Shown here in pieces: positions 4,962-30,848 of a stretch of 64,000 nt of DNA (its first letter is position 1; the number at the start of each line of letters is the position of its first letter). The DNA comes from Bacillota bacterium (GTDB lineage: Bacteria > Bacillota > SHA-98 > Ch115). Made by a program: the position numbers and the translations under genes. The stretch covers positions 69,747-133,746 of the forward strand of contig JABLXA010000017.1 of assembly GCA_013178415.1 (NCBI GenBank), read 5' to 3'. The notes under the pieces are model-generated. The model did not search any database and was not told the origin of the DNA. It saw only the letters and a program-made list of their open reading frames with translations.

Positions 4962-5951
4962 CTACCTCTGGCGCCGGCGAATGATGTCTGCATATACTGC
5001 CGCTATAACGATAACGCCGATAACGACCGTTTGCCACTCCTGGGGGATCGAGAGGATACGGAGGCCATTTGTTAACACGCTCATGATGAATGCGCCGATT
5101 ACCGTCCCCAATATGGTACCCTCCCCCCCGCTAAGGGATGTGCCACCGATAACAACTGCTGCAATGGCTTCCAATTCGTAGCCTTGACCTAGAGCCGGCT
5201 GTGCCGAATTTAGACGAGAGGCCATCATGACACCAGCTAGGCCACTGAACATTCCACCGATCGTGTAGACAATGATCTTCCAGGCATCGACATTGATACC
5301 TGAAAGGCGGGCCGCTTCTTCGTTGCTACCGAGGGCGAAAGTATATCTTCCTATCACTGTCTTAGTTAGCATGAAACCCGCGATCAGGGCCGCCCCGAAG
5401 AAGATCAGCACAGCATTAGGGATACTCAGGAATGAGCCCATGGAAATCTTGCGGAAGACAGGTGTGTCTATAAAATAGATGGGTTTTGTGCCGGAAATCA
5501 CGAGGGAAAGCCCCTTCGCGATCATCATCATACCCAGCGTAGCTATAAACGGCGGGATCTTCACCTTGGCTGTCAGCGAACCACTGATAAATCCACATAG
5601 GGCTCCTGAGGCAATTCCACCTATTACCCCTATGATAACAGGTAATCTCCAGAACGTGATAAAAACGCCAGTCATAACTGCCGCGAAGGTCATAACAGTG
5701 CCCACAGACAAATCGATGCCACCGGTGATTATCACAAATGTAACCCCTACCGCTAATACGCCATTTACGGCGGTGGCAAGCAAGATACCGATTATGTTGT
5801 TGAACTTCGCGAAGTTTGGTGAAGCAAGCGAAAAGACGAGGAACATCACGATCAGGCTTGCGAAGGCAAGGAGTTTTTGCGTGGCATCGGAACGGAATAA
5901 AGACTTTCTGGGCACGCGCTTATCCCTTATGACCGCAAGTCTGCCTTCCAT
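4962..5951 (-). CDS. Monosaccharide ABC transporter permease (RbsC-like)
   Basis: GGIDLSVG, PPFIATLG and GYELEAIAAVVIGGTSLSGG motifs. Confidence 0.92.
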   Translation of the reverse strand: MEGRLAVIRDKRVPRKSLFRSDATQKLLAFASLIVMFLVFSLASPNFAKFNNIIGILLATAVNGVLAVGVTFVIITGGIDLSVGTVMTFAAVMTGVFITFWRLPVIIGVIGGIASGALCGFISGSLTAKVKIPPFIATLGMMMIAKGLSLVISGTKPIYFIDTPVFRKISMGSFLSIPNAVLIFFGAALIAGFMLTKTVIGRYTFALGSNEEAARLSGINVDAWKIIVYTIGGMFSGLAGVMMASRLNSAQPALGQGYELEAIAAVVIGGTSLSGGEGTILGTVIGAFIMSVLTNGLRILSIPQEWQTVVIGVIVIAAVYADIIRRRQR

Positions 5952-5954
5952 ATC

Positions 5955-7502
5955 TTAGACCCCCAATATTGGCCCTTCCGGGATCAGCGGATATCGAGCG
6001 CCATTTTCGCGCATTGTAGCATACTGCATGATACGTTCCTCTGTAGCCTCTGAAGCGCCAAATTCACCAGTTATTCGGCCTTCACACATTACGATGATAC
6101 GATGGCTCATGCGCAAGATCTCGGGCAACTCCGAGGAAATCATGATGATGGATTTCCCGCTTGCCGCCAGGTCATTAAGGAGCTTATAGATCTCGTTCTT
6201 CGCGCCCACGTCAAGACCGCGGGTAGGCTCATCGAATATCAAAATATCGCAATTTCGAATCAGCCACTTAGCAATAACTACTTTTTGCTGGTTGCCTCCG
6301 GAAAGATATTTGACCTTCTGTTGCAGACTTGGTGTCTTGATATTGAGTTCATCTACATGCGCTTGCGCCTCGGTCCGGATCTTGGCCCTATTCACGTACC
6401 CAAGGAAACCCAGAAACCTCTCGAGTGTGGCTATCACGATATTGGTTTCTACATCTATACCTAGCATCAGTCCATAGCGTTTACGGTCTTCGGATAGATA
6501 ACCTATGCCATGCCTAACAGCATCCCTGGGGCTCTTGATATCGATCTTCCGACCTCTCACGTAGACTTCGCCAGAATCGATAGGATCTGCGCCGAAAACC
6601 GCACGAGCCACCTCTGTGCGCCCAGCACCCATAAGTCCAGCGAAACCGAGGATCTCGCCTTTCCTGAGTCTAAAGCTTACGTCCTTGATCACACGGCCCC
6701 GATTCAGGTTCCTTACCTCAAGTACAACTTCCTGGCCGCCGCTTTCCAAGTCTGCGCGGGACGTCGCATAGATCTCACGCCCCACCATCATGCTGATGAT
6801 CTTATCAATGGTGGCATCTTGAGTATTGACCGTACCTATATACCGACCATCGCGCATTACAGTGACGCGATCAGAGATCTGTTTCAGTTCCTCCAATCGA
6901 TGGGAGATATAGATAATTCCTACGCCTTGGTCACGGAGCCGGCGGATGATCCGAAAGAGCTCTTGCGTTTCCGCTTCACTTAGAGCTGATGTAGGCTCAT
7001 CCATGATGAGCACTTCTGAATTATACGATAAGGCCTTGGCAATCTCGACCATCTGCTGTTTGGCGACTGTAAGATCCGAAACCCTGGTTCGCGGGTCTAG
7101 TTCAAGGTGCATCATATCAAGCAGCTGTCTGGCCTTTTGATTGAGCTTCTTTTCATCTAAGAGAAACCCGATGCCCCTACGCGGCTCTCGGCCAATGAAG
7201 ATATTCTGCGCTACAGTCAAGTGCGGCATAAGGTTCAATTCCTGATGGATCATGCTGATGCCTAATTCTTGTGCCGCCCTCGGGTTTGGGATCTCAACCT
7301 CCCTCCCTTTGAAAAGAATACGCCCTCCGTCTTTCTGATAAGCGCCGGTGAGCACCTTCATGAGCGTAGTTTTACCGGCGCCATTTTCGCCGACCAATGC
7401 ATGCACCTCGCCAGCGCGGAGCTCAAACTGACATTGGTTGAGAGCATGCACACCCGGGAAGGTTTTTTCTATTCCCTCCATCAAGATTAGAACTTCGCCC
7501 AT
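5955..7502 (-). CDS. Monosaccharide ABC transporter ATP-binding protein (RbsA-like, two ABC domains)
   Basis: [21 protein letters not shown] and FDEPTRG motifs. Confidence 0.93.
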
Positions 7503-7713
7503 CTGTTATCTCCCCAAACTCGTCATATGCCATTTCAGACAGGTCCGCAACGCTCTATTCTCATCTATGCATACAGGGCATACAGGCTGGTACCCTCTGC
7601 TTTTTTAATCCGCAGCGCATAGGGGAGTCAAAGGTAATATTCAAAATTGACTATACTTTAGATAATCTGAATCTCTATTTAGACTAATACACCATCTAAC
7701 CGGGAATTCCTCC

Positions 7714-7779
7714 TTAGACGAAGGGGGCCTCAAGCCTCCTCCCCACTGCCCTGCGGCTACCAGACGCATCGCTTATCAT
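7714..7779 (+). repeat. Degenerate direct repeat, copy B (copy A at 3569..3636)
   Basis: Manual alignment to copy A. Confidence 0.6.
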
Positions 7780-7811
7780 CATATTGACCTGCTGCTACAT
7801 TTTCATATCTT

Positions 7812-8321
7812 TTGGCCGCTCTGGGAGTCAGCCAAACTACGAGATTCGGCATGAGCTTCTTCGTTGGTCTTGGCAACAAGGCTGATGTGGACTTCTCCGA
7901 ATTCATGGCGTATGCAGGCAAGAAAGAGGCTGGAGCAATAAGAGCAAGGACATGGGAAGACTTCCTTGACAGCGCCTTAGCCCTAGGTCATATGCCGCCG
8001 CTTCGCAGCGAAAATATCGTGATGGTCACAAATGGTGGAGGCTCAGGACTCCTTGCATCAGATGAATTTGAGAGAAGGGGTATTCCGCTTCGTGAACTCA
8101 AGGACATTTCACCTGAACTCTCCTCAGGGATTAAGGCATATTATAAGTCCCTGAATAAAGCCGTAGTATCGGAATTTCAGGGTGGAGCTGAATGCGACGA
8201 TGCCATCAAGAAATTGCGGGATGCAGGTATACCAGCGTATCCAACACCTGAGAGGGCTGTTACGGCTCTGGTAGCGCTGAGAGAATATGCGAAAATAAAG
8301 GAAGAATTCCGCGCTAAATAA
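7812..8321 (+). pseudogene. Internally deleted remnant of an ADP-forming acyl-CoA synthetase alpha subunit (AcdA-like)
   Basis: Collinear but discontinuous motifs GLGNKADVD, AGAIRA, TNGGGSGLLASD and GIPAYPTPERAV; no N-terminal CoA-binding domain; 169 aa against about 460 aa typical. Confidence 0.65.
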
Positions 8322-8459
8322 TGACTGCGCTTATGTCAATTTCATCCTAAAGGTGTCAATGCGCGGCATTCAAAAAGCACCCTCATGCTGCTGCGACAGC
8401 GTCGCCAAAGGGATGAAAATGGTAGTGGTTCGTTTTTGGGGCACTATGGGGCGGTCTGC

Positions 8460-9155
8460 TCAATCGCGAGCAGGCTGCTCCTGGCTGCCCCTGCAGTCGA
8501 TCTCGCCCTCATTGTCTACTTGCCTCTGTTTTCTCTGTGATGCGGGATGATGCTCACCCCAAGAACGGCCGAATGCCTCCGCTGTTTCCATAAGTACGCT
8601 CCCGAATAACTGCTTAAGAGTAAGCACAGGGGTAAATCCGGCGCATGCGGCAGCAAGTTGGCGATCCTCAGTGATCAAAGGAACGCCATATTTCATGCTG
8701 AGCATCACATAGACGGCATCATACACGGTAAGGCCTATCTTGCGAGATAATGCTCCAAGAATAGGGATGCTACCGGGAGGCAGGTCAATACATTGTATCG
8801 GGCACGCATCTAATGCCTCAAGATCGCGAAAGAAATCAGCATCCTGTTCAGGAGACCATCGAAGGACATTCGTCACCTCATACCAGAACAGAGAGGGCGC
8901 GATAAGTCGCCTGTAACCTTTATACGCCTCGATGAGAAGTCGCGTCGCGAGCTCCGATCCATCTTCATCTAGAAACCATTTTACCCCTATACAGGCGTCA
9001 ATGACATAGACCGGCGCAATTGATGATCTCACCGGGAAAGCGCCGATTTCATCAGGAATGCTTTCCTTTGGGTCCATAGACGGAAGTCCGATATCCGCAT
9101 CCGAATCACCTGCCGGCCCCGCCAAATAGCCTTTGCTCACTGCCTTTCCCGCCAC
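8460..9155 (-). CDS. vapC: PIN-domain (VapC-like) toxin
   Basis: VIDAC, YEV, YDAVY and TEDRQ supply the four acidic PIN residues; overlaps the upstream RHH gene; start uncertain. Confidence 0.8.
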   Translation of the reverse strand: MAGKAVSKGYLAGPAGDSDADIGLPSMDPKESIPDEIGAFPVRSSIAPVYVIDACIGVKWFLDEDGSELATRLLIEAYKGYRRLIAPSLFWYEVTNVLRWSPEQDADFFRDLEALDACPIQCIDLPPGSIPILGALSRKIGLTVYDAVYVMLSMKYGVPLITEDRQLAAACAGFTPVLTLKQLFGSVLMETAEAFGRSWGEHHPASQRKQRQVDNEGEIDCRGSQEQPARD

Positions 9156-9433
9156 CTTCGTATCTCCGCAATTCCGTCGAACCCTTTAAGCCTTTTCGCG
9201 GCCCCTCGAGCCACTTCAAGAGCTTCCTCAAAGGTAATGGACACAGGAATCGATTCAACTACAGGGAATCCTATTCCCCGGTGCCCAGGCTCATCATTCA
9301 TGGCTCGCGAGATGATGCGACGCAACATGGCGCTGCGGGAAAGGCCTTCTGCCTGAGCCATATCATCGAGAGCGGCCAGGTCTTCTCTAGAAAGCATCAC
9401 GTTTACCCGGACCAAATCCTTCTCTTGCGACAT
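9137..9433 (-). CDS. CopG/ribbon-helix-helix antitoxin
   Basis: VRVNVMLSREDLAALDDMAQAEGLSRSAMLR RHH pattern; VapB-like EIRRWRER tail; start uncertain. Confidence 0.75.
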   Translation of the reverse strand: MSQEKDLVRVNVMLSREDLAALDDMAQAEGLSRSAMLRRIISRAMNDEPGHRGIGFPVVESIPVSITFEEALEVARGAAKRLKGFDGIAEIRRWRERQ

Positions 9434-9547
9434 GGGAATTGCGGTAGGAACGCCAGGCCTTGACCTGACGAAATATACCGCCCACCTCCTTTTATGTATG
9501 GAATTGGTTCGCGCTTCTCCTGGCATCATATTTCCAAGTATGCATTT

Positions 9548-9577
9548 ATTATACAATACCCCATTGAAGTGTGTCAA
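9548..9577 (-). promoter_or_regulatory. SigA-type promoter of the TA operon
   Basis: TTGACA-N18-TATAAT, both hexamers perfect. Confidence 0.7.
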
Positions 9578-9758
9578 TAAGAACACACTCTAATGTGTAA
9601 TAGAATGTACCGGCGAATTCGGCACGACTCTGCCGCGGCGACAATGAAGCAAAATATGAATCCGAATCTGCAGGAGATTCTATGTATCATATCGTATATT
9701 GTAATTCATCACAGGAGTGAGGCCGGATTCCGACATATCGAGATATCGAGGTGTAATT

Positions 9759-10271
9759 ATGGATCGCAAATCAGTTCCCATCCATGACTTCGTCACTCGT
9801 CCCTACCATTTATTCGATCAGCAGTGGCTGCTGCTAACCAGCGGCGATTTCCACAAGGGCCATTTCAACGCCATGACCATATCATGGGGCGCTATCGGGT
9901 TCATGTGGGACAGGCCACTCATTGTTACTGTCGTGCGTCCTACCCGTTACACCTACGAATTTATCAACCGTTATGATACATTCACCGTGTGCGCTTTTCC
10001 AGAATCTTGCCGTGACGCGCTTGCTCTGCTCGGCAGTAAATCAGGCCGGGACGGCGATAAAATAACCGAATCAGGATTGACACCTGTCGCCTCGCAGATA
10101 GTGGCCGCGCCTAGCTTCGCGGAGGCGGAACTTGTGGTGGAATGCCGCAAAATATACTGGCAAGATATAGATCCAGGCAATTTTCTAGACCCGTCAATAG
10201 AAAAGTCTTACCCTCAGCAGGATTATCACCGCGCCTATTTTGGCGAGGTAGTGGGGATTTTCAAAGCCTAG
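9759..10271 (+). CDS. Flavin reductase-like FMN-binding protein
   Basis: FNAMTISWG, VRPTRYT and GSKSGRDGDK motifs; SD GAGGTG. Confidence 0.85.
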   Translation: MDRKSVPIHDFVTRPYHLFDQQWLLLTSGDFHKGHFNAMTISWGAIGFMWDRPLIVTVVRPTRYTYEFINRYDTFTVCAFPESCRDALALLGSKSGRDGDKITESGLTPVASQIVAAPSFAEAELVVECRKIYWQDIDPGNFLDPSIEKSYPQQDYHRAYFGEVVGIFKA

Positions 10272-10304
10272 GGCGCAGCCGCGTCGCCGCGCCCTTTATG
10301 GAGG

Positions 10305-10341
10305 GGCGGCGAAAATACCATCAAGGGGTATTCTCGCCGCC
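10305..10341. terminator. Hairpin between convergent genes, possibly a bidirectional terminator
   Basis: GGCGGCGAAAATACC / GGTATTCTCGCCGCC arms with one mismatch. Confidence 0.55.
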
Positions 10342-10350
10342 CGTTATCAC

Positions 10351-11028
10351 CTATGCCGCCGGGAAATCCCGCTGGCCATACTGGTTTAGGTAATAGCTTC
10401 TCATAAAATCGATGTCTTCCTGAGATAGGGATTTTAACCCCCCCACCAATCCGCCGAGCACTGTCATCTGGGCTGCCTTCTCTACTATAAGGCAGATCTT
10501 AAGTGCTTCCGCCAGCGAGGAGGCGAACCCCACGACGCCATGATTGGCGAGGAGAACCGCGTTGCGTCCCTCCGCCGCTTCCAGGGCATACCTGCCGAGT
10601 TCGGGCGTCCCCGGGAGGGCGTATGATGCGACCTTCACCCCTCCCCCGACTATCTGAACCAATTCTTCAACGACGGGCGGAATTCCCCGATGCGCACACG
10701 CCAGGATGGTTGCCCAGGTACTATGTGTATGGACTACCGCCCTCGCCTCCGGCCTGCCCTTATAGACAGCTAAGTGGAGAGGAACTTCTGTAGAGGGCTT
10801 CCTTTTGCCATCAACCACATTCCCTTCCAGGTCTATTATCACGATATCTTCCTGCATTATCTCGTCGTAAGGTATTCCGCTCGGAGTGATTGCTACATAA
10901 CCCGAATCTGCTACCCTGGCACTCAGGTTGCCCCATGTGCCTATCACAAGATTGGACCCGAGCATTACCTTGCCTGCTTTTACTACTTGATTACGTACCT
11001 CCTGGATATCTGCTGAAACACCTGACAA
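10351..11028 (-). CDS. Class II aldolase/adducin family protein (FucA/Ald2/DrdA-like)
   Basis: GNLSAR, ITPSG, KPSTEVPLH, HTHS and ANHG Zn motifs; probable TTG start at 11028. Confidence 0.88.
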   Translation of the reverse strand: MSGVSADIQEVRNQVVKAGKVMLGSNLVIGTWGNLSARVADSGYVAITPSGIPYDEIMQEDIVIIDLEGNVVDGKRKPSTEVPLHLAVYKGRPEARAVVHTHSTWATILACAHRGIPPVVEELVQIVGGGVKVASYALPGTPELGRYALEAAEGRNAVLLANHGVVGFASSLAEALKICLIVEKAAQMTVLGGLVGGLKSLSQEDIDFMRSYYLNQYGQRDFPAA

Positions 11029-11047
11029 ATCAATTCCCCCTCGCAAG

Positions 11048-12370
11048 TCAGCGGGTTATCCCCTCAGCTGTCACCATTCCGTGAATCAATGGGGTCGGCG
11101 AAACCGGTTCCTTACTGATGCTAAATGAGCTCTTGATTTGATCCACTGCCCTTTCTGCCTTTCCCCTGTCATTGGCGTGAACTACTGCTATAGGTTCGCC
11201 GCTTGCCACCCGGTCGCCCATCTTTTTCAATAGAACGACTCCTACCGAATAGTCGATGGCATCCTCTTTCTTCTCGCGACCCGCCCCCAACATCATAGAA
11301 GCCCTACCGATCTCTTCAGCATCGATAGCCTTCACAAAGCCAGATCTATCGCTGGTGACGGGTACCTTGAGCGCGGCATCTGGAAGCATCTCTGGATTGT
11401 CAGCCACGGTCGGATTCGCTCCCTGGGCCTCGAGAAGCTCTCTGAGTTTATCAAGCGCCCTGCCGCTTGTTACCGCTTCTTTGATCTTTGCTCTCCCATC
11501 CTCGAAATCCGCTGTCTTGCCCGCCAGGGTAAGCATATGGCCTCCCAGCGTTACGCATAACTCGTAGAAATCACCCGGCCCCTCACCTTTCAGCGTTGCG
11601 ATTGCTTCTTTGACTTCTAGCGCATTGCCAACGGCATATCCAAGCGGTTGCGACATATCAGTGATCACAGCTACAACCTTACGGCCCACCTCGGTTCCTA
11701 TGGCCACCATGGTGGATGCCAGGTTGAATGCGTCATCAAGCGATTTCATGAACGAACCTTTCCCTGTCTTGACGTCAAGGACAATGGCATCAGCCCCAGA
11801 GGCGATCTTCTTTGACATGATGCTAGCTGCGATCAAGGGGACGCTGTCGATAGTCGCCGTCACATCCCGCAAAGCATAGATCTTCTTATCCGCGGGAGCC
11901 AGATTACCAGTCTGGCCGGATAGTGCGATGCCAATCCTGTTGACATTAGCAACGAATTGTTCCATGCTCAATGCAACATTGAACCCGGGTATTGACTCTA
12001 GTTTATCTATGGTCCCACCAGCAAAGCCCAGAGCCCGCCCTGACATCTTGGCGACTGGGGCTCCGCATGCCGCCACCATGGGCCCAAGCGCAATAGTCGT
12101 CTTGTCTCCCACGCCGCCTGTGCTGTGCTTATCCACCTTGATACCCTTGATGGCGCTGAGATCGATCTGATCGCCGGATTTTGCCATGCACAATGTGAGT
12201 TCAGATGTCTCCTTTGGAGACATGCCGCGGATGAAAACTGCCATAAGAAAAGCCGCCATCTGATAATCAGGAATATCGCCTGCTACAAATCCATTGACGA
12301 TGAACTTGATCTCATCACCGGACAACTCATGCCCATCCCGTTTCTTAGCGATGATATCATATGCCCTCAT
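11048..12370 (-). CDS. pdp: Pyrimidine-nucleoside phosphorylase (thymidine phosphorylase family)
   Basis: DKHSTGGVGDK, GGTIDKLESIPG, ALRDVTAT and SIMSKK motifs; 440 aa. Confidence 0.9.
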   Translation of the reverse strand: MRAYDIIAKKRDGHELSGDEIKFIVNGFVAGDIPDYQMAAFLMAVFIRGMSPKETSELTLCMAKSGDQIDLSAIKGIKVDKHSTGGVGDKTTIALGPMVAACGAPVAKMSGRALGFAGGTIDKLESIPGFNVALSMEQFVANVNRIGIALSGQTGNLAPADKKIYALRDVTATIDSVPLIAASIMSKKIASGADAIVLDVKTGKGSFMKSLDDAFNLASTMVAIGTEVGRKVVAVITDMSQPLGYAVGNALEVKEAIATLKGEGPGDFYELCVTLGGHMLTLAGKTADFEDGRAKIKEAVTSGRALDKLRELLEAQGANPTVADNPEMLPDAALKVPVTSDRSGFVKAIDAEEIGRASMMLGAGREKKEDAIDYSVGVVLLKKMGDRVASGEPIAVVHANDRGKAERAVDQIKSSFSISKEPVSPTPLIHGMVTAEGITR

Positions 12371-12418
12371 TCATCTCAGCCCCTTCTCGCCCCTGTGCCC
12401 TGGGGCGTCTCTTATATT

Positions 12419-13468
12419 TTACTTGTCCTTGGACTGCCTTTCGAAAGCCGCCTTGATGGAGATCTCAAATGGGGGGCGGAGGATTCCAACCTCAGTTATG
12501 ATCCCATCAAGATATCTATGCGGGGTCACGTCGAAAGCAGGATTGAATACCTTGATCCCATCAGGTGCCACCTGTACCCCTCCGAAATGCGTCACTTCCT
12601 CTGGATTTCTTTCCTCAATGGGAATTTCCTCTCCTGTCTTTATGGACGGATCAATTGTTGAAAGCGGGGCAGCCGTAAAGACTGGAATGCCATTTTCTTT
12701 CGCCAGGACTGCCACGCTATAAGACCCGATTTTGTTGGCTGTATCTCCGTTGGCTGCGATCCTATCAGCCCCGAATATGACGAGATCCACGTATCCCTTG
12801 TGCAAGACATAGCCAGCCATATTATCCGTTATCAAAGTGACCGGGATACCATCTTGCATGAGTTCCCAGGCAGTAAGCCGTGCCCCCTGCAGTAGCGGTC
12901 TGGTCTCATCTGCAAACACCTGAATATCTTTCCCTGCCTCATGCGCTGCGCGCACCACGCCCAGGACCGTGCCATAACCTGCTGTGGCAAGTGCCCCGGC
13001 ATTGCAATGTGTCAGGATACGCGCGCCCTGAGGCACAATTTCATTTCCATTGCGGCCTATTTTCCTGTTAGTCTCCAGATCTTCCTCGTGAATCTTCTGA
13101 GCTTCCTCTAGAAGACTCTTTCTTATTATTCCAATATCAGAGGTGCTGCAGTTCTCTAGCTTATTCTTCATGCGCCGCAGCGCCCAGAAAAGGTTCACAG
13201 CCGTGGGTCTGGTCGCGCCCAGGGTCTCAGATACTTCTTCCATGTGGCTCAGGAAACCCGCCCTGTCTGTGCCCCTATATTCGTTTGCCCCCAGCACGAT
13301 CCCGTATGCAGCCGCGACTCCGATGGCCGGCGCGCCGCGCACCACCAATTTCTTTATAGCGCTTGCCAGCGTCTGATGATCTTTACAATGAACATATTCA
13401 ACAGATAATGGCAATTTAGTTTGATCAAGAAGAATGAGCGTATCATTCTCCCATCTTATAGCCTCCAT
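12419..13468 (-). CDS. mtnA: Methylthioribose-1-phosphate isomerase family (eIF2B-like)
   Basis: VRGAPAIG, RPTAVNL, THCNAGALAT, ETRPLLQGARLTAWEL and NPAFDVTP motifs. Confidence 0.93.
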   Translation of the reverse strand: MEAIRWENDTLILLDQTKLPLSVEYVHCKDHQTLASAIKKLVVRGAPAIGVAAAYGIVLGANEYRGTDRAGFLSHMEEVSETLGATRPTAVNLFWALRRMKNKLENCSTSDIGIIRKSLLEEAQKIHEEDLETNRKIGRNGNEIVPQGARILTHCNAGALATAGYGTVLGVVRAAHEAGKDIQVFADETRPLLQGARLTAWELMQDGIPVTLITDNMAGYVLHKGYVDLVIFGADRIAANGDTANKIGSYSVAVLAKENGIPVFTAAPLSTIDPSIKTGEEIPIEERNPEEVTHFGGVQVAPDGIKVFNPAFDVTPHRYLDGIITEVGILRPPFEISIKAAFERQSKDK

Positions 13469-13581
13469 CTAGCTCTAACCTCCCAAAATCTATACGGAAA
13501 ACAATCCGCTGTCGATTTCTATCTTTCTCCGGCGCCATCCAGGAGCCGGTATGGTAGATTGCGGGCAAATTCAACGTCAAT

Positions 13582-14505
13582 CTAATCCTCTTCATATGGC
13601 TTGTTTATGGCGGAAGGCGCCCTGGACTTTCCCACAACTCCGGCCAGCGCGATTATGGTAACCAGATAGGGGACCATCTGGATAAACTGCACGGGCAAGG
13701 AAGCCATCTGCAGTCGCATCTGTAAGGCATCGGCAAAACCGAAGAAGATGGCGGCAGCCAGAACGCCCAGCGGTTTCCATTTGCCGAGGATAAGCGCGGC
13801 CAGGGCGATGTAACCGCGACCCGCAGTCATGTCCCTCCTGAATGTGTCGACCAACCCGATTGAGAGGTAAGCTCCGGCAAGCCCCGCCAGCAAGCCGCTT
13901 ATTATCACCCCTATATATCTCAACCTGTTTACCCGAATACCAGCCGTCGCAACCGCTTCTGGCAATTCCCCTGCAGCCCTTATCCGCAGGCCAAATGCCG
14001 TATGGTAGACCACCCACCGGGCCATGAACGGAAGAACAAGCGCCAGGTAGACTACCCAAAGCTGCCCATTCAGCACCGGGCCGATTACTGGTATTTTGGA
14101 AAGAAGGGGTACATTCACGGCGGAAATCCTGACACTGACCGCCTTTGAGTTTCCTACTGAGCCGAATACAAGGGCCAGCAGATATTGCGTAATGCCGGAC
14201 GCAAAGATATTGATGGCGATGCCGGTCACAATTTGATCCGCCTTGTATCGAACGCTAAATAGAGCATGAACGCCAGCCATAAGTCCACCGGCGACAATTG
14301 CGGCGAGAATCCCTAGCGACACGTTTTGAGTCAAGTAGGTTATCACCGAACCGGCGAATGCCCCACACAACATCATGCCCTCGATCCCCAGGTTGGTAAC
14401 CCCAGATAATTCGGAAAACATCGCCCCAGTAGAAGCAAGGATGAGGGGGGTTGCCATCCGCAGGGTCGCGGCAAAAAGGTAGACACTTTGGACCCCTTCA
14501 AACAT
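13582..14505 (-). CDS. Nucleoside ABC transporter permease (NupC/YufQ-like)
   Basis: SELSGVTNLGIEGMML and GRGYIALAALILGKW motifs. Confidence 0.88.
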   Translation of the reverse strand: MFEGVQSVYLFAATLRMATPLILASTGAMFSELSGVTNLGIEGMMLCGAFAGSVITYLTQNVSLGILAAIVAGGLMAGVHALFSVRYKADQIVTGIAINIFASGITQYLLALVFGSVGNSKAVSVRISAVNVPLLSKIPVIGPVLNGQLWVVYLALVLPFMARWVVYHTAFGLRIRAAGELPEAVATAGIRVNRLRYIGVIISGLLAGLAGAYLSIGLVDTFRRDMTAGRGYIALAALILGKWKPLGVLAAAIFFGFADALQMRLQMASLPVQFIQMVPYLVTIIALAGVVGKSRAPSAINKPYEED

Positions 14506-15559
14506 GTTCTGGTTCTCCTCTTTTCGTCAATGATTTATGCTCCATGAGCTTGTGGAGGCCAAAGTCAGCCGTCACCATAAAGATAATGGTAGCCTGCAAT
14601 ATGGTGATCAGGTCCACCGGGATATTGGTAGCCAGATTCATCTGGAAACCGCCACTATTTAGAGCGCCAAAGAGGAGTGCGGCTGCAACGACTCCCAAAG
14701 GATGGGTGCGGCCCAATAGAGCTACCGCGATACCCTCAAAACCATAGCCAGGTGAAAATGCATTGTAGAAAGAGCCGTAAACGCCCAGAACCCTTTCAAT
14801 GCCTGCGAGGGCCGCCAGGGCTCCACTCAACCCCATTGCCGCCACTATAATACGGTCTATTCTAATTCCGCCATATCGAGCAGCGTTGGGATTCTTGCCA
14901 ACCGCCCTTATCCTATAGCCCAAAATAGTATGCCATAGCAGAACATAAACAGCCAGAGTTGTAAGTAGCGCTAGGATTAGACCGTAGTTCAGGCGCGAAT
15001 ATGGAACCAGGGTTCCCAGCCTGGCTGTAGTTAACACGTCAGGGGTCTTGGGCGTACCTCCGGGCGCTTTCCAGGGTCCAACGACCAGGTAATTGGTCAA
15101 TGAATAGGAAATGTAATTCATCATGATAGTAGTCACGACTTCATGTGCCCCGAATTTCGCCTTGAGCAACCCCGGGATTAATCCCCACACACCTCCGCCA
15201 AGCATTCCGGCCAGAATTGCGAGGGGCAAGTGCAGAAAACCCGGCAGTCCATGAATAGAGAATCCAACCCAGGCCGCCATGATCCCGCCCACATAAAGCT
15301 GGCCCTCTGCCCCGATATTGAAGACTCCGGCCCGCATCGCTAGACTGACAGCTAACCCTGTAAAGATCAAGGGAGATGAATACATCAGTGTGTCCGCGAT
15401 TTTTCTAGAATTTCCGAAGGCTCCTTTCAGGAGCGCTCCATATCCTGTGAGGGGACTTACCCCGGCCACCATCATAAGTAGCGATCCCAGCAATGCTGCC
15501 AGCAATACGGCTATCAAGGTGGGGGCAATCGCCAACACCTTTTCTTCTTTTTCCGACAT
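14498..15559 (-). CDS. Nucleoside ABC transporter permease (NupB/YufP-like)
   Basis: FNIGAEGQ, HEVVTTIMMNY and GYGFEGIAVALLG motifs; start reassigned to MSEKE. Confidence 0.88.
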   Translation of the reverse strand: MSEKEEKVLAIAPTLIAVLLAALLGSLLMMVAGVSPLTGYGALLKGAFGNSRKIADTLMYSSPLIFTGLAVSLAMRAGVFNIGAEGQLYVGGIMAAWVGFSIHGLPGFLHLPLAILAGMLGGGVWGLIPGLLKAKFGAHEVVTTIMMNYISYSLTNYLVVGPWKAPGGTPKTPDVLTTARLGTLVPYSRLNYGLILALLTTLAVYVLLWHTILGYRIRAVGKNPNAARYGGIRIDRIIVAAMGLSGALAALAGIERVLGVYGSFYNAFSPGYGFEGIAVALLGRTHPLGVVAAALLFGALNSGGFQMNLATNIPVDLITILQATIIFMVTADFGLHKLMEHKSLTKRGEPEHV

Positions 15560-15575
15560 CCAGGACACTCCTTCA

Positions 15576-17120
15576 TCAAGCCCCTGCTTCCGCGTCAGCT
15601 CGAATTTCTGGATCAACCCTTGCGCCTGTCATATAGAGCCCGAGGATATTCTGATCCACCTGATCTGAGCCGAACTCGGCCACTATTTTCCCTTCATACA
15701 TTACCTCAATACAATCTGCCAGACTTGTTATTTCATCTAGATCAGCTGAGACAAGCAGGATAGCCTTGCCGCTATCCCTCATCTTCAGGATCTGCCGATG
15801 AATGAACTCTATTGCGCCGACATCAACGCCTCGTGTTGGCTGGGAGATGATCAAAAGACACGGATCGCAGCTCAACTCTCGCGAGAGCACGATCTTTTGC
15901 TGATTCCCGCCAGATAACGTGCTGACCGGTATTGAAATCGATGATGCGCGCACATCAAATGTTGATGTGAGTCTTTTTGCCATTTCATCGATGGACGCCA
16001 GGTCAAGGAACGGCCCGCGGTGATATTTGCGATCCCCTTCAAAGCCTAAGAGCACATTCTCTGATATGCTAAAATCAAGTATCAGCCCGTGCTTGTGCCG
16101 GTCCTCTGGAACGAATGCAACCCCGGCTTTTCGAATCTGGTCCGGTCCTAACCGCGTTGTTTCACGGCCATTCAGTCTGATATTTCCTCTAACCGGGCGC
16201 CGCATCCCGGCGATGGCTTCAAACAATTCGGTCTGCCCGTTTCCTTCTACGCCCGCAATGCCGACAATCTCCCCGGCTCGGACCTTCAAAGAGATCCCTT
16301 TCACCGCCGGCAGGCCGCGGTCATTTTGCACATATAGATTATTTATGTCTAGCACCACCGGACCCGGTGACGCAGGTTTCTTTTCGAGAGTGAGTATGAC
16401 CCTGCGTCCCACCATCATTTCCGCCAGCTCTTCCGTGCCTGTCTCATCCTTCTTGACGGTGGCGATCACTCGACCTTTTCTCATGACAGTGATGCGATCA
16501 CACAAGGCCATCACTTCCTTAAGCTTATGGGTAATGAAGATGATGGTCTTGCCTGCTTCCTTTAGGGTGCGTACGATCTCGAAAAAGCCCTCTGTCTCCT
16601 GCGGAGTCAGCACAGCAGTAGGTTCATCAAAGATAAGTATGTCGCCCCCTCTGTAGAGGACCTTGATGATCTCTACCCTCTGCTGCATCCCGGCGCTTAT
16701 GTCCTCGACCTTTGCGTCTAGGTCGACAGAAAGGGAATATTCTTCTGAGATGCGACGGATCTCACCGCTCGCAGATCCCAAATCCAGTTTCAAGCCCTTC
16801 ACAGGCTCCTTCCCCAGGACGATATTCTCCAAAACCGTGAGGGTGGGCACCAGCATGAAATGCTGGTGTACCATCCCAATACCAGCGTGCATGGCCTGAA
16901 TTGGACTATGAAACCTCACCGGCTTCCCCCTCAGGAAGATCTCACCATCATCAGGTGAGAGCAGGCCGTACAGGATCTTCATGAGAGTCGTCTTGCCAGC
17001 GCCATTTTCACCTATAAGGGCATGGATCTCGCCTTGCTCCACAGAGAAGGTCACATGATCATTTGCCACAACCGGACCAAACCGTTTCGTTATATCCTGA
17101 ACTTCTAATATCGGCGTCAA
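15576..17120 (-). CDS. Nucleoside ABC transporter ATP-binding protein (NupA/YufO-like)
   Basis: [28 protein letters not shown] and QPTRGVD motifs. Confidence 0.9.
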   Translation of the reverse strand: MTPILEVQDITKRFGPVVANDHVTFSVEQGEIHALIGENGAGKTTLMKILYGLLSPDDGEIFLRGKPVRFHSPIQAMHAGIGMVHQHFMLVPTLTVLENIVLGKEPVKGLKLDLGSASGEIRRISEEYSLSVDLDAKVEDISAGMQQRVEIIKVLYRGGDILIFDEPTAVLTPQETEGFFEIVRTLKEAGKTIIFITHKLKEVMALCDRITVMRKGRVIATVKKDETGTEELAEMMVGRRVILTLEKKPASPGPVVLDINNLYVQNDRGLPAVKGISLKVRAGEIVGIAGVEGNGQTELFEAIAGMRRPVRGNIRLNGRETTRLGPDQIRKAGVAFVPEDRHKHGLILDFSISENVLLGFEGDRKYHRGPFLDLASIDEMAKRLTSTFDVRASSISIPVSTLSGGNQQKIVLSRELSCDPCLLIISQPTRGVDVGAIEFIHRQILKMRDSGKAILLVSADLDEITSLADCIEVMYEGKIVAEFGSDQVDQNILGLYMTGARVDPEIRADAEAGA

Positions 17121-17138
17121 AGCCCTCGCTCCCCTGCT

Positions 17139-18170
17139 CTATTGTTCCATGGGATCTGTGACCTTGATATCTCCATCAATGATCTTCTGGCGTATTTCTG
17201 CCAGTTTGTCTTTCACTTCCTGGGGAACCTTGTCGGCTGTGTATTCGAAGTCCGCCAGCCCGACTCCGTTCTCAGCGAGGCCATATATATTGATGCCTGC
17301 TTTGAAATTGCCCTCTGAGTATGCCTTGATGGTATCATACACTGCCACATCCACCTTTTTCATCATGCTGGTCAAGACGATTCCCGGGGCGACGCTGTTC
17401 TGATTTACATCCTCGCCTATCATCCATGTTTTAGTCTCCTTGGCTCCCTCTATCACGCCCAGGCCAGTAGGTCCAGCGGCATGGAACAGCACATCCGCGC
17501 CATGCTGGACCTGAGCCAGCGCCAATTCCTTACCGGCCGCAGGATTGTTAAATGCAGATGGATCGGTGCCAGCGTAATTTGTAATTACCGTCACGTTAGG
17601 ATTTACATACTGAGCCCCTTCTTTATATCCCACTTCAAAGCGCTCGATCAAAGGCATCTTGAGAGCTCCAACAAAGCCTATCTTATTGCTCTTAGTCATC
17701 ATGCCAGCCAGGGCGCCAGCCAGGAATGAACCTTCATGTTCCTTGAATGCAATAGAAGCTACATTAGGTAGATCCACAGGAACATCCACCATCACAAACT
17801 TGCTGTTAGGAAACTCTTTGGCTACTTTTTCCAATGATTCTTTCATCATAAAGCCAATTCCTATGGTTAGATCATAGTTATTCTCGGCTAGATACCGCAG
17901 GCTTTCCTCATCTGAAGCCATTTGTTTGGGCTCGATGATCTTTATTTCGGCCCCGAGTTCTTTCTCCGCCCGCTCAACAGCGGCTATTGCCATATCATTG
18001 AATCCGTTGTCGCCCCTGCCTCCCACAGACAGAACCAATCCGATCCTTAGCTTATGATCTTGCTCACCGGCTACCGGACCGCCAGGTTTCCTATTCCCCT
18101 GATAGACGACGGCCGAAATAGCTGCAAGCACTACGACAATTAAAGCAACCACTATCCAACGCTTACCCAT
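17139..18170 (-). CDS. BMP-family (PnrA/NupN-like) nucleoside-binding protein
   Basis: GGRGDNGFN, FKEHEGSFLAG and SMMKKVD motifs; N-terminal hydrophobic anchor with no Cys. Confidence 0.88.
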   Translation of the reverse strand: MGKRWIVVALIVVVLAAISAVVYQGNRKPGGPVAGEQDHKLRIGLVLSVGGRGDNGFNDMAIAAVERAEKELGAEIKIIEPKQMASDEESLRYLAENNYDLTIGIGFMMKESLEKVAKEFPNSKFVMVDVPVDLPNVASIAFKEHEGSFLAGALAGMMTKSNKIGFVGALKMPLIERFEVGYKEGAQYVNPNVTVITNYAGTDPSAFNNPAAGKELALAQVQHGADVLFHAAGPTGLGVIEGAKETKTWMIGEDVNQNSVAPGIVLTSMMKKVDVAVYDTIKAYSEGNFKAGINIYGLAENGVGLADFEYTADKVPQEVKDKLAEIRQKIIDGDIKVTDPMEQ

Positions 18171-18270
18171 TTTGTCTCCTCCCCTTCAAAAGTCCCTTGA
18201 TCGGATTTGCCAGATCAAGACGCAAAATCCAGATGAACACTTGAGCTGAGCAGTTGATGACGTCTCATTT

Positions 18271-19035
18271 CTATGGTGCAATGATTACCTTGACTCCAAC
18301 TTCCTGTAACCTCTCTACCTCCTCCTCTGGCGCGCCCGCTGTGGTGATCAAAACATCGATTCTTTCGATAGGGCAGACCTGCATGAAGGCTACCCGACCA
18401 AATTTGCTTGGGTCTACCAGCGCGATCACCTGCTGCGCTATATCCATCATGGCCTTCTTCATCTCTGTTTCTTCCGGAGAAGCATCAGTAAGGCCGTTTT
18501 CACAAGAGAACGCATTTGCAGAGATAAATGCCTTGTTCACCCGATAAGCGAGAAGTGATTTGACAGCTGCAGGCCCCACCAGGGACATGGCCCTCGACCT
18601 GATATTACCGCCGGTCAAATGGGTAGACACTCCGGTCCGCCTCCCTAGCTCCAGGGCAATCATGAGATTGTTAGTTACAACGGTAAGACCGGAAAATCCC
18701 TTTAATCTTTTGGCAAGTTCCAGGGCGCTGGTGCTAGCATCCAGGGCAATAGCTTCATGGTTCTGAATCAACTCCGTCGCCGCAGCTGCCATTTTGATCT
18801 TTTCGCTCAGGTTTTCTATTTTGCGTATCTCCAATGGCAGGTCAATTATCGTGCCATCACACGCCACGGCTCCGCCATGGACACGTGTAAGCTGTCCTGA
18901 TTCCTCCAGGGCCTTCAGGTCTCGTCGTATGGTCATTTCGGACAAGCCAAGGGTTTTGCTGAGGGAACTGACCTCCACCCTTCCTGTGGTCCTCAGGATT
19001 TCTATGATGCGCTCATGGCGCTCCACCGTACGCAT
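18271..19035 (-). CDS. DeoR/GlpR-family transcriptional regulator
   Basis: SEMTIRRDL HTH, RVHGGA, LDASTS and VVTNN motifs; start reassigned to MRTVER. Confidence 0.9.
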   Translation of the reverse strand: MRTVERHERIIEILRTTGRVEVSSLSKTLGLSEMTIRRDLKALEESGQLTRVHGGAVACDGTIIDLPLEIRKIENLSEKIKMAAAATELIQNHEAIALDASTSALELAKRLKGFSGLTVVTNNLMIALELGRRTGVSTHLTGGNIRSRAMSLVGPAAVKSLLAYRVNKAFISANAFSCENGLTDASPEETEMKKAMMDIAQQVIALVDPSKFGRVAFMQVCPIERIDVLITTAGAPEEEVERLQEVGVKVIIAP

Positions 19036-19393
19036 GAAACCTCCCCCGCTGTTCTGTGACATTTCAGTTTCTGTCTTATTCAAACAGTTTTTCGAGGAAA
19101 CGCTGTTCTGTTTATGTTCTAATATATTCTTTTTGAACATTTATCTGCTTCGACGTATCCTTCCGAAATCCTGCTAGTATAGGCCCGTTGGTGAGGAAGA
19201 ATTTCAACCTGAGATAGGAAACTCTGGAGCAGGCGGGCGGACATAGAAGAAATGGTCGATTATAGAAGGGAATCTTGAAAGGAATATCCCGACTCCTGGC
19301 GAAATATTTTTGGGTATTATCGTGAGGGACAGGCCTATATGGCGCTACTGGCCCTACAGATGCCTGTGCACCGAGAAAGAGGAGTGACGAGAG

Positions 19394-20025: not shown

Positions 20026-20748
20026 CTAGGTTAGCTTTACATAATAACGGCATTTGTCACCTCTGACAATGCCTTTGCATACCTCTACGGGGCGTCCTGA
20101 TTCGCTGTAAGCAATCCTATGAAGAAGCAGCGCCGGTGATCCTTCCTTGACTCCTAACATCTCAGACTCATAATCGTCAACGCACACTGGCTCAAAATAT
20201 TCCTCGGCCCTGACAGGCCGGATCCCATATATCTTTTCCATCAGGTCATAGAGCGAGTTTTTTTCCAACGCCTCAAGCGTCAGACCCGGGAACAGGTCCG
20301 CTGGCAACCATGAAGTCTCAAGAATCACTGGCTCGCTTTTGACCAATCTCAGCCTCTGAATCTCAAACACATTAGCGCCTTCACTCAATTGGAGCTGAGT
20401 TCTTATTTTGGCATTGGGCGCCACTTCCTTGAGGTGCAGCACTTCAGTCCCGGGATTCAGCCCTTTCGTCTCCATGTCCTTGCTGAAGCTATAAAACCGC
20501 TCCAGACCTTGCTCTATTTTAGGAGAATTTACAAATGTTCCCTTACCTTGCTTCCGATAGAATAGCCCTTCTCTCGTCAGATCCTCGATGGCGCGCCGGG
20601 CGGTGGCCCTGCTTACACCATACTCCATGGCAAGGCGCGGCTCTGAAGGGATCAACTGATGAGGCCTCCATTCCCCGGATTCAACCTTTTCTCTGAGAAT
20701 TTCTTTCAGCTGATGGTATAATGGTATGATGCTGCTGGGGTCAATCAT
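20026..20748 (-). CDS. GntR-family regulator (HutC/UTRA subfamily)
   Basis: PLYHQLKE, PSEPRLA, VSRATARRA, RKQGKGTFV and RGDKCRY motifs. Confidence 0.92.
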   Translation of the reverse strand: MIDPSSIIPLYHQLKEILREKVESGEWRPHQLIPSEPRLAMEYGVSRATARRAIEDLTREGLFYRKQGKGTFVNSPKIEQGLERFYSFSKDMETKGLNPGTEVLHLKEVAPNAKIRTQLQLSEGANVFEIQRLRLVKSEPVILETSWLPADLFPGLTLEALEKNSLYDLMEKIYGIRPVRAEEYFEPVCVDDYESEMLGVKEGSPALLLHRIAYSESGRPVEVCKGIVRGDKCRYYVKLT

Positions 20749-20804
20749 AATAACACCTTCAGTTACTAAATATGGTGAAATCCATTCGTAAACCAGGCAA
20801 CTCG

Positions 20805-22019
20805 TCAGTCGGTCTCATATATCTTCACACCTTGAACTACTCTGCTGATAACGCCATCCTCACTCGGGTTATCCGGCCTAAGTCCCAGGTTGATAGAGGC
20901 AAACAATCCCAGAAGCTGACCGAAGACCACATATCCCAGACCTTGGACACTGTCCGTGATATCTGGGGTCTGCAAATCTATCACTATATCACAGACCTGA
21001 GATAACCGCTCGGACCAGTTCTCGCCGCACAGCGCCACCCTCCTGCCACCCAAACCCTTCATCTTGATCTCTGACATAAGATCCAGTTGATAATTCCTCA
21101 GATACGAACTGTTTGAAGTCAAATAGACCACGAGGGTCTCGTCGTCTATCACCGCCATTGGCCCATGTCGCAATCCAAGCGTAGTTTCGGCTTTGCATAT
21201 GGTCTTCCCACTGCTCATCTCCTGCAGTTTGAGACTGCACTCAAGCGCAATCCCGTATAGATCTCCATCCCCAATGAATACCGCCCTTCTTAAGCCCCTT
21301 TGAGCCAAATCAGAAGCATACCCGGCCAGAATCTCAATATCCCTCTCAATTGACCTTGAGATAGTATCCAGCATGCCCGGGTACCCCTCCGGGTTGCCCG
21401 TAGCCAGATATGCAAATTGCTGAGCCGCGACCACCATACTGGAGAAAGAACTGGTCATCGCCAGCCCCTGGTCATTAGTCAGCTCAGGCAATGTCAACAC
21501 CATATGCCCGCTGTCACCCTCGGCGAGCCTGGCCAGACGTCCCTTCGGATTGCAGGTAATCGTCATGGCACGCATGCCCTGCCTTGCCTTCTTACATGCC
21601 TTGTATGCCGCAACACTCTCAGGACTATCACCTGACCTTGCAAAAGACACCAAGATGATGTCCCCTAAAGGGAGAGACCAGCTTGGATCCGTGACAATAT
21701 CAGTGCTGGGAACGGATCTTGTATCCACACCGAATGGGGAAAATGCCATCTTGAAAAATCGCTCGACCGCCCGTCCTGCAAATTCCGAGCTTCCTGCTCC
21801 GGAGAGGACAAAAGTTACCTTTGGACCATCTATAGCTCGGCTAACTGAGATGATATCACTCAGAAAGGCTCGTATCTCCTCCGATTTATCTTTCAGGAGC
21901 CTTGATGTCTCCATCCAAAGACCGGGCTGTTGGGCAATCTCCTTCGGAGTAAAGAGCAAACCTCTCTGGGCTTTCTCTTGAGGGGACATCGTCAATAGTG
22001 CTTGAAGCTGGCCAGTCAT
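20805..22019 (-). CDS. agaS: AgaS-like SIS-domain sugar-phosphate isomerase/deaminase
   Basis: TPKEIAQQP, GAGSSEF, SFARSGDSPES, NDQGLAMTSSFS, LGLRHGP and ISRVVQGVKIY motifs; start from SD GGAGGTG. Confidence 0.82.
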   Translation of the reverse strand: MTGQLQALLTMSPQEKAQRGLLFTPKEIAQQPGLWMETSRLLKDKSEEIRAFLSDIISVSRAIDGPKVTFVLSGAGSSEFAGRAVERFFKMAFSPFGVDTRSVPSTDIVTDPSWSLPLGDIILVSFARSGDSPESVAAYKACKKARQGMRAMTITCNPKGRLARLAEGDSGHMVLTLPELTNDQGLAMTSSFSSMVVAAQQFAYLATGNPEGYPGMLDTISRSIERDIEILAGYASDLAQRGLRRAVFIGDGDLYGIALECSLKLQEMSSGKTICKAETTLGLRHGPMAVIDDETLVVYLTSNSSYLRNYQLDLMSEIKMKGLGGRRVALCGENWSERLSQVCDIVIDLQTPDITDSVQGLGYVVFGQLLGLFASINLGLRPDNPSEDGVISRVVQGVKIYETD

Positions 22020-22207
22020 GTAACGCACCTCCGCCATACGCAACCCTATTCTCCCGCTATCGCATCGCATGGGCATATATACTAGTGAATATGAGGATGG
22101 AAAACACAAACTGATCATAACACTGTTGTCCGTACAACCGTTCATTAGATATGATTCTACATTTCCTGAAAAACTCCTTCTTTTACTGCAAGAGTCATAA
22201 ATCTCAT

Positions 22208-23440: not shown

Positions 23441-23457
23441 CTTATCTCCCAAATACT

Positions 23458-24582: not shown

Positions 24583-24614
24583 CTGATAAGCGTCTGTTAA
24601 GATAATTCCGCCAT

Positions 24615-30820: not shown

Positions 30821-30848
30821 CCCGAACTCCTCTCCATGAGCAGAAAAC

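Follow-up and report, generated by a model that had tools for sequence, protein, structure and literature searches.

The dihydroxyacetone phosphate (DHAP) shunt for the disposal of 5-deoxyribose consists of a feeder, either MtnP or MtnN together with MtnK/DrdK, the isomerase MtnA/DrdI and the aldolase Ald2/DrdA (Beaudoin et al. 2018, PMC6079011; North and colleagues; ExPEC strains of E. coli, PMC10986504, PMC12632272), and in E. coli it is controlled by the DeoR-type repressor MtnR (PMC12632272). Here we analysed a 64 kb stretch of contig JABLXA010000017.1 from a Bacillota bacterium (in the following, the window), in which positions 10351-19035 carry a cluster of eight tightly packed genes, all on the minus strand and joined by short gaps or overlaps, as read from the list of open reading frames (ORFs). 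NCBIfam and Pfam profile scans assigned the genes to a DeoR-family regulator, a BMP substrate-binding protein, an ATP-binding cassette (ABC) ATPase, two permeases, MtnA, the pyrimidine-nucleoside phosphorylase Pdp and a class II aldolase, confirming all eight ORFs and families of the co-directional cluster described in a preceding sequence-only reading. We tentatively propose that this is a DeoR-repressed operon for imported nucleosides, in which the phosphorylase of the DHAP shunt specific for purines or 5'-methylthioadenosine (MTA) has been swapped in situ for Pdp, and in which ribose-1-phosphate (R1P) would be converted via ribulose-1-phosphate (Ru1P) to DHAP, a proposal based on the gene context in a single lineage.

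Several properties of the cluster are those of the DHAP shunt. An MtnA/DrdI-type isomerase stands beside a class II aldolase of the Ald2/DrdA type, whose orthologues (60-78% identity) belong to clusters of MtnA and a phosphorylase. The order isomerase-phosphorylase-aldolase is that of a related Bacillota locus (L207, see below), control is of the DeoR type as with E. coli MtnR, and, like some drd clusters, this one includes an importer. In contrast, the feeder belongs to the thymidine-phosphorylase family and is neither an enzyme of the purine-nucleoside phosphorylase (PNP)/MTA phosphorylase family nor a nucleosidase with a kinase, and the importer is a BMP-type ABC system predicted to carry nucleosides. 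Given the pyrimidine feeder and this importer, the expected substrate is not 5'-deoxyadenosine or MTA. The absence of MtnP and MtnK from the cluster, already noted from the sequence, extends to the annotated ORFs of the 64 kb window (those with 200 aa or more and, in addition, four shorter flanking ORFs), among which no homologue of MtnP, MtnK, MtnN or DeoB was found.

The haloarchaeal non-carboxylating pentose bisphosphate pathway (Sato et al. 2022, PMC9700705) likewise leads from a nucleoside to R1P and eventually to Ru1P and a class II aldolase, and it also uses an isomerase of the eIF2B/MtnA superfamily, but it passes through ribose-1,5-bisphosphate (R15P) as well as ribulose-1,5-bisphosphate (RuBP), whereas the isomerisation of R1P would be direct in the bacterial route proposed here. 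The archaeal pathway depends on an R1P kinase, an R15P isomerase and a RuBP phosphatase, none of which NCBIfam and Pfam scans detected in the cluster. If the proposal is right, the locus would encode a shortened bacterial analogue of the haloarchaeal pathway. Canonical nucleoside operons of Bacillota (DeoR; nupC or BMP-ABC; pdp; deoB; deoC; cdd) share the DeoR-type regulator, Pdp and, by prediction, the nucleoside importer with the window operon, which in contrast lacks phosphopentomutase, deoxyriboaldolase and cytidine deaminase and carries MtnA and the class II aldolase instead. A full-text literature search returned no description of a bacterial conversion of R1P via Ru1P to DHAP and glycolaldehyde, nor of a Pdp-fed DHAP shunt. 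What we suggest, with reserve, is a three-enzyme, ATP-free bacterial route from the ribose of pyrimidine nucleosides to DHAP and glycolaldehyde, which would be the direct, bisphosphate-free counterpart of the haloarchaeal one.

In the proposed route, the BMP-type ABC system would import nucleosides, a ligand suggested by its family and by the nucleoside-bound structure 7x0r, and Pdp, with an intact active site, would convert uridine and phosphate to uracil together with alpha-D-ribose-1-phosphate. Members of the eIF2B/MtnA superfamily accept 5-methylthio, 5-deoxy, 5-fluoro and 5-phospho substituents, and MtnA would isomerise R1P to Ru1P, as its gene position suggests. This step would also agree with a metabolism of ribose reported for methionine-salvage enzymes of B. 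subtilis (Nakano 2013, according to PMC6302742 and PMC10986504). The aldolase would then cleave Ru1P to DHAP and glycolaldehyde, the products of the haloarchaeal class II Ru1P aldolase (PMC9700705); E. coli FucA accepts glycolaldehyde according to work cited in the same paper, and DrdA takes diverse aldehydes (PMC6079011). Such a route would bypass both phosphopentomutase and the pentose-phosphate pathway.

PyNP family chemistry limits the products of Pdp to uracil or thymine and (deoxy)ribose-1-phosphate, of which deoxyribose-1-phosphate would lack the 2-hydroxyl needed by an aldose-ketose isomerase. Furthermore, we know of no abundant natural pool of 5'-deoxy pyrimidine nucleosides. This is because the 5'-deoxynucleoside by-products derived from S-adenosylmethionine (SAM), i.e., those of radical-SAM and polyamine metabolism, are adenosines (PMC6302742). 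If Pdp feeds MtnA, R1P from uridine is for these two reasons the most likely intermediate, and from the two routes offered by the sequence-only reading the one via R1P and Ru1P is the more plausible. The other, a DHAP shunt acting on pyrimidine nucleosides that are 5'-deoxy or otherwise 5'-modified, in which 5'-deoxyuridine would yield uracil and 5-deoxyribose-1-phosphate and the latter DHAP and acetaldehyde, appears unlikely for want of a natural substrate, even though such nucleosides are well accepted by thymidine phosphorylase in pharmacology, this enzyme is described in PMC2377090 to cleave 5'-deoxy-5-fluorouridine, relatives of MtnA and the aldolase work on 5-deoxy substrates (PMC6079011) and the Pdp loop discussed below is less polar than usual (H116F, T117A). 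The additional suggestion that 5-fluorouracil could be released from 5'-deoxy-5-fluorouridine holds for any pyrimidine-nucleoside phosphorylase (PyNP) or thymidine phosphorylase (TP) and is not specific for this locus.

The gene context of the aldolase carries the stronger part of the argument. Its orthologues (60-78% identity) lie in clusters of the DHAP-shunt type, in which MtnA and the aldolase are joined by a purine or MTA-type phosphorylase. This bears out the earlier view of MtnA and the FucA-like aldolase as a DHAP-shunt pair, fed in these clusters by MtnP or a Plasmodium-PNP-like enzyme. L207 (aldolase 62% identity) shows the order mtnA - MTA phosphorylase - aldolase, with a phosphorylase that reaches 273 bits on TIGR01694, just under the cut-off of 274.85. 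As the window has the same order with pdp in the middle, Pdp occupies the phosphorylase (MtnP) slot. In L209 (60%), a GntR regulator is followed by an energy-coupling factor (ECF) ATPase/CbiQ, an unknown gene, MtnP, a QueT-like S component, the aldolase and a methionine-gamma-lyase-like gene, the gene in the MtnA position encoding 419 aa without an NCBIfam match. L204 (78%) comprises ECF ATPase/CbiQ, MtnA, QueT, a phosphorylase, a zinc-dependent alcohol dehydrogenase (Zn-ADH), the aldolase and again a methionine-gamma-lyase-like gene. The best solved relatives of the L204 phosphorylase are Plasmodium PNPs, enzymes that act on inosine and methylthioinosine; these matches ruled out that it is a uridine phosphorylase and hence a second pyrimidine feeder. 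With MtnP as the feeder in L207 and L209 and a Plasmodium-PNP-like enzyme in L204, the feeder is an exchangeable part. L124 (50%, positions 8874-16107) combines MtnA, aldolase, Zn-ADH, BMP protein, ABC ATPase and two permeases and has no phosphorylase. Overall, this part of the Bacillota and organisms outside it repeatedly show one module, in which an importer and a phosphorylase are combined with MtnA and the aldolase and in some cases with an alcohol dehydrogenase. In other genomes Pdp is most commonly accompanied by phosphopentomutase (12 of 131 neighbours), the place of which is taken here by MtnA and the aldolase.

Besides their bearing on the window, these loci have features of their own. 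The ECF/QueT clusters of the two related Bacillota extend over positions 3382-11984 (L204) and 3552-11863 (L209) and appear to represent a DHAP/methanethiol shunt that is coupled to import through an ECF importer and is not known to have been described as such. The organism of L124 is AT-rich and unrelated, and its cluster provides a second link of a BMP importer to the MtnA/aldolase pair. In L207, a pyrrolysine insertion sequence (PYLIS, 7258-7357) is located in mttB just upstream of mtnA-mtnP-aldolase, indicating a pyrrolysine-decoding, methylamine-using member of the Bacillota.

Pdp (11048-12370, minus strand, 440 aa) is a divergent PyNP-type pyrimidine-nucleoside phosphorylase that scores over its full length above the cut-offs (NF004747, 611.6 bits vs 559; TIGR02644, 572.9 vs 409), with 1brw as the best solved match (E = 3e-158). 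It retains K81, H82, S83, K108, S110, L114, T120, R168, I180, S183, K187, G205 and F207 (BsPyNP numbering), and the DKHSTGG motif holding the base-contacting His is intact. Lys108 was reportedly named by Pugmire and Ealick in 1998 as the mark of PyNP, thymidine-specific TPs having Met at this position. Since all phosphate- and pyrimidine-binding residues are kept, the window Pdp should be active and of the type that accepts uridine. At the same time it deviates at 11 out of 183 conserved columns (those with at least 90% conservation in its 120 best relatives), compared with a median of 4, which places it at about the 98th percentile. Unusual residues are G113A, H116F, T117A, V174I, A206S and G318A; V174I falls on the position of human TP (hTP) Val208, which is listed among the active-site residues around the pyrimidine (PMC2719695), and A206S adjoins Gly205.

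Three of these substitutions change the loop SGRGLGHTGGT to SGRALGFAGGT, which is encoded at 12011-12043 (minus strand) as read before. In the thymidine-phosphorylase fold this is the glycine-rich loop, believed to be where the catalytic phosphate binds, and for its His (BsPyNP His116, hTP His150) a "key hydrogen bond" to the backbone of Gly205/Ala239 has been proposed in domain closure; in BsPyNP, His116 is hydrogen-bonded across the domains and touches neither the base nor the sugar (PMC2719695). The window Pdp departs from the consensus loop, which in view of the spread of the His-to-Phe exchange is not a strictly defining feature of PyNP. Among the 119 nearest homologues His116 is replaced by Phe once and Thr117 by Ala never, whereas a degenerate-codon scan with one genome per species detected Pdp with His-to-Phe in at least 120 species representatives (loci L004-L123), mostly Chloroflexota (Anaerolineae among them) and Clostridia with the loop SGRGLGF[TS]GGT. 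The co-directional neighbours of these pdp genes (n = 131, Pfam) are most commonly phosphopentomutase (PF01676, 12), followed by PNP and cytidine deaminase (5 each). No aldolase relative was detectable within 8 kb of any of the at least 120 loci listed, and within the same span a relative of mtnA is located near five of them (including L029, L038, L041 and L079), in L038 and L079 separated from pdp by unrelated, divergently oriented genes and not in one operon with it.

As the His-to-Phe exchange recurs beside ordinary nucleoside genes, the loop does not mark a new pathway, and the loop variant was rejected as a pathway signature (at least 120 species; neighbours DeoB, PNP and Cdd). Its natural occurrence in that many species indicates that the "key hydrogen bond" between His116 and Gly205 is dispensable in nature. 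The idea that the loop signals an altered nucleoside specificity could not be maintained either, since it concerns a phosphate loop with a His that makes contact with neither base nor sugar. The same findings count against a feeder for 5'-deoxy pyrimidine nucleosides, because the changed loop binds phosphate and closes the domains without contacting the 5'-position and, elsewhere, His-to-Phe enzymes are found in ordinary deoB, cdd and PNP contexts. The AMP phosphorylase of T. kodakarensis (4GA4) has the loop SSRAITSAAGT, with Ala at the same two positions (G113A, T117A) and also without His.

MtnA (12419-13468, minus strand, 349 aa) is an eIF2B-related aldose-1-phosphate isomerase that reaches 455.5 bits on TIGR00512 (cut-off 279), is set apart from R15P isomerase and eIF2B subunits and has 1t9k as the best solved match. 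It is entirely typical of its family: only 2 out of 142 conserved columns differ, both conservatively (A168V, M222L), the motifs THCNAG and GADRIAANGD are readable, and the invariant columns including the catalytic Cys and Asp are kept. These assignments also bear on a bacterial route resembling the pentose bisphosphate pathway, with Pdp as nucleoside-monophosphate phosphorylase and the MtnA homologue as R15P isomerase. AMP phosphorylase and R15P isomerase do come from the same two superfamilies, and the two Ala residues and the missing His recall the 4GA4 loop; yet Pdp reaches 253 of the 535 bits required by the AMP-phosphorylase model, whose N-terminal domain it does not have, MtnA obtains 227 vs 314 bits on the R15P-isomerase model, the importer is predicted to be of the nucleoside type, and no Rubisco or RuBP phosphatase was found in the window, which renders this the least probable of the explanations considered and an extremely improbable one.

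The aldolase (10351-11028, minus strand, about 225 aa) is a metal-dependent class II enzyme resembling FucA, DrdA and Ald2 (PF00596, 187.7 bits, E = 2e-55), its solved matches being 4c24 (FucA) and 6btd (DrdA). The best named matches are FucA-type models with 158-189 bits over the full length, all under the equivalog cut-offs, and the metal site of Glu and three His is readable in PSTEVP, HTHS and ANHG. With FucA of L-fucose and D-arabinose metabolism it shares the fold and the metal site, and FucA handles DHAP plus glycolaldehyde, i.e., D-ribulose-1-phosphate, according to work cited in PMC9700705; it differs from that system in that neither a fucose isomerase nor a fucose kinase is encoded nearby. 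The model of the haloarchaeal Ru1P aldolase (NF053831) gave 155 bits vs 300. Like Pdp, the aldolase is atypical, as 9 out of 95 conserved columns deviate (approximately 97th-98th percentile), among them Y111W and A114I, which come shortly after the HTH metal motif. MtnA and the aldolase are probably still active on 5-deoxy- and 5-methylthio-pentose-1-phosphates.

The sequence-only reading had named a function of the aldolase as MtnB dehydratase among the outcomes that would speak against its proposal, and in a methionine salvage pathway the aldolase-fold protein would indeed be a methylthioribulose-1-phosphate dehydratase of the MtnB type through which the sulphur of MTA is recycled. MtnB belongs to the same Pfam family, MtnB models match the protein at E = 6e-23, and the L204 and L209 clusters carry a methionine-gamma-lyase-like gene. 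TIGR03328 (MtnB), however, gave only 81.4 bits vs 137 in a partial alignment covering residues 24-116, compared with the full-length FucA-type matches, neither MtnC, MtnD, MtnW or MtnX nor a pyridoxal-phosphate enzyme was found in the window, the cluster contains no SAM riboswitch, and the feeder is a pyrimidine enzyme, so that methionine salvage is a very unlikely function.

The main rival, in our view only slightly less probable, is a composite nucleoside-scavenging operon without flux from Pdp to MtnA. In this case Pdp would handle uridine and thymidine and deliver pentose-1-phosphates to an unlinked phosphopentomutase, while MtnA and the aldolase would use 5-deoxyribose-1-phosphate or methylthioribose-1-phosphate from an unlinked MtnP or PNP, the BMP importer taking up a broad range of nucleosides and 5'-deoxyadenosine and MTA being either imported or endogenous. 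A composite operon would agree with the growth of E. coli on exogenous 5'-deoxynucleosides via the MtnR-controlled DHAP shunt (PMC12632272, PMC10986504) and with the many nucleosides bound by BMP proteins of the PnrA type (PMC9601137). Several observations weigh against a direct, Pdp-fed route, the first three of which would also agree with a composite operon. MtnA is typical of its clade and carries no substitution suggesting adaptation to a substrate with a 5-hydroxyl. All close aldolase orthologues are found in contexts of 5'-deoxy or 5'-methylthio purines, accompanying MtnP or phosphorylases resembling Plasmodium PNP. L124 combines the BMP-ABC importer with MtnA, aldolase and alcohol dehydrogenase without a linked phosphorylase, and Pdp could hence be a co-regulated passenger. 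The operon contains no gene for the handling of glycolaldehyde. Finally, the order mtnA-pdp-aldolase has no counterpart around the nearest Pdp, MtnA and aldolase relatives examined and occurs in one lineage only, namely in the window and in the near-identical contig L213.

The surroundings of these relatives are varied. The closest MtnA (L003, 75-76% identity) adjoins a more distant aldolase and the next-closest are encoded by stand-alone genes, whereas the nearest Pdp relatives stand in housekeeping contexts, one in the order PNP-PNP-pdp-dacB-spoIIA-sigF and another beside phosphoribosyl pyrophosphate synthetase. Among 80 metagenome loci around aldolase relatives no second pdp-mtnA-aldolase cluster was found; they yielded only L124, with MtnA, aldolase, alcohol dehydrogenase and BMP-ABC genes and without Pdp. 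The survey of synteny and loop that had been suggested thus revealed a common His-to-Phe exchange but no second cluster beyond L213. In L200 the gene is that of an AraD-like epimerase, and the pdp nearby is unrelated. Like the aldolase gene in the window, mtnA in L001 and L216 is followed by a convergent Flavin_Reduct gene; with 36-38% identity this gives only a weak hint that pdp and the aldolase gene were added beside a resident mtnA.

What speaks against a composite operon is first the position of pdp, which lies between mtnA and the aldolase gene, exactly where mtnP is found in L207, and not at the edge of the operon. Moreover, no purine or MTA phosphorylase, nucleosidase or kinase was found among the annotated ORFs of the 64 kb window, and both Pdp and the aldolase are odd at conserved sites, which is unexpected for a plain passenger. 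The location of Pdp inside the enzyme block and its joint divergence with the aldolase therefore favour the direct route from R1P via Ru1P to DHAP over a composite operon.

The importer comprises a PF02608 protein, an ATPase of the CUT2 type and two permeases, an architecture for which a nucleoside ligand is predicted. The BMP/PnrA-family substrate-binding protein (17139-18170, minus strand; E = 5e-67 for PF02608) has an N-terminal membrane anchor, and its closest solved structure is 7x0r, Lbp of C. thermocellum (E = 3.5e-67), which resembles PnrA and whose crystals held a nucleoside that was modelled as guanosine (PMC9601137). With a nucleoside-bound protein as the closest structure, the assignment of the ABC system as a predicted nucleoside importer is reasonable. 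The ATPase (15576-17120, minus strand) consists of two fused nucleotide-binding domains (PF00005 twice) and also matches NCBIfam sugar- and BMP-type ATPase models. Permease 1 (14498-15616) and permease 2 (13582-14505), both BPD_transp_2 proteins encoded on the minus strand, overlap by 8 nt; the ORF of permease 1 in addition overlaps the end of the ATPase gene, and an internal ATG may be its true start.

DeoR-family repressors usually sense a phosphorylated pathway intermediate, and the sensor domain of the window regulator would respond to such a compound as well. The regulator (18271-19035, minus strand, about 254 aa) combines PF08220 (HTH_DeoR) with the sugar-phosphate sensor domain PF00455 (DeoRC), its NCBIfam matches of the AgaR/GlpR-like type being under the cut-off. 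Its start is most likely the ATG at 19035, which is preceded by the ribosome-binding site GGGGGAGG in the DNA and fits the end coordinate previously given for the cluster. Just upstream of this likely start, CAGAACAGCG occurs twice about 55 nt apart (approximately 19045-19110, minus strand) and forms a candidate regulatory repeat; no word matching it was found upstream of bmp or mtnA. When the regions upstream of deoR, bmp and mtnA were compared for a DeoR operator in common, neither a shared word of at least 9 bases nor a clean palindrome emerged. No Rfam element, and thus no S-box/SAM riboswitch, was detected in the cluster (10351-19035), and no S-box near mtnA in five related loci. Control by DeoR alone without a riboswitch fits carbon catabolism rather than methionine salvage.

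Within the cluster, mtnA, pdp and the aldolase gene are tightly packed, with 48 nt between the first two and about 20 nt between the last two. A spacer of 113 nt ahead of mtnA (13469-13581, minus strand) contains the promoter-like hexamers TTGACG and TACCAT separated by 18 nt, by consensus match a possible internal promoter for mtnA-pdp-aldolase. The spacer between mtnA and pdp harbours a GC-rich hairpin, CGCCCC...GGGGCG, with a perfect 6-bp stem (12388-12407, minus strand). No U-tract follows this element on the mRNA strand. It is not an intrinsic terminator of the operon and could be a candidate for RNA processing, stability or translational control. The aldolase start is most likely the TTG at 11028 behind GAGGGGG, whereas the ORF itself reaches 11046.

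The window as a whole is a run of substrate-utilisation operons, and the origin of the near-identical contig L213 from a biogas-fermenter metagenome allows an ecological placing of the organism as an uncultured bacterium of biogas reactors. Directly upstream of the DeoR operon (20026-26234, minus strand), genes for a GntR/UTRA regulator, a SIS-domain protein, a major facilitator superfamily transporter, a phosphomannose-isomerase-like cupin and an FGGY kinase are located. Other systems include a sugar ABC transporter (3795-7502), an Opp-type ABC transporter (26792-32874), a GH38 mannosidase (43285-46743) and heparinase-like lyases (58611-62608). A LacI-type regulator, a PfkB sugar kinase and an ADP-ribosylglycohydrolase are clustered on the minus strand (52273-55654); together with the gene of a second ADP-ribosylglycohydrolase-domain protein of 653 aa (38470-40431, minus strand), they may constitute a further ribosyl or nucleoside-like catabolic system. 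At 125-3075 (minus strand), a [FeFe]-hydrogenase-like protein (599 aa; 4Fe-4S and PAS domains) is encoded directly upstream of a SpoIIE/PP2C phosphatase, a pair that looks like a sensory hydrogenase signalling pair. Between two catabolic operons lie a ribbon-helix-helix (RHH) antitoxin and a PIN-domain toxin (8460-9586, minus strand), beside a 169-aa ORF (7812-8321, plus strand) with only fragments of a CoA-ligase domain that is probably a gene remnant; L213 shows the same arrangement.

Should Pdp not feed MtnA, the locus would represent a nucleoside-scavenging operon with an ordinary DHAP shunt. If the proposed direct route is true, it would be the first bacterial route from nucleoside ribose to DHAP and glycolaldehyde that requires neither phosphopentomutase, the pentose-phosphate pathway nor ATP, and would provide a clean case of pathway evolution by changing the feeder enzyme alone. 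It would further widen the substrate range of the MtnA/DrdI and Ald2/DrdA families, now annotated as methionine-salvage or fucose enzymes, and would mean that anaerobic digesters have one more source of glycolaldehyde or ethylene glycol.

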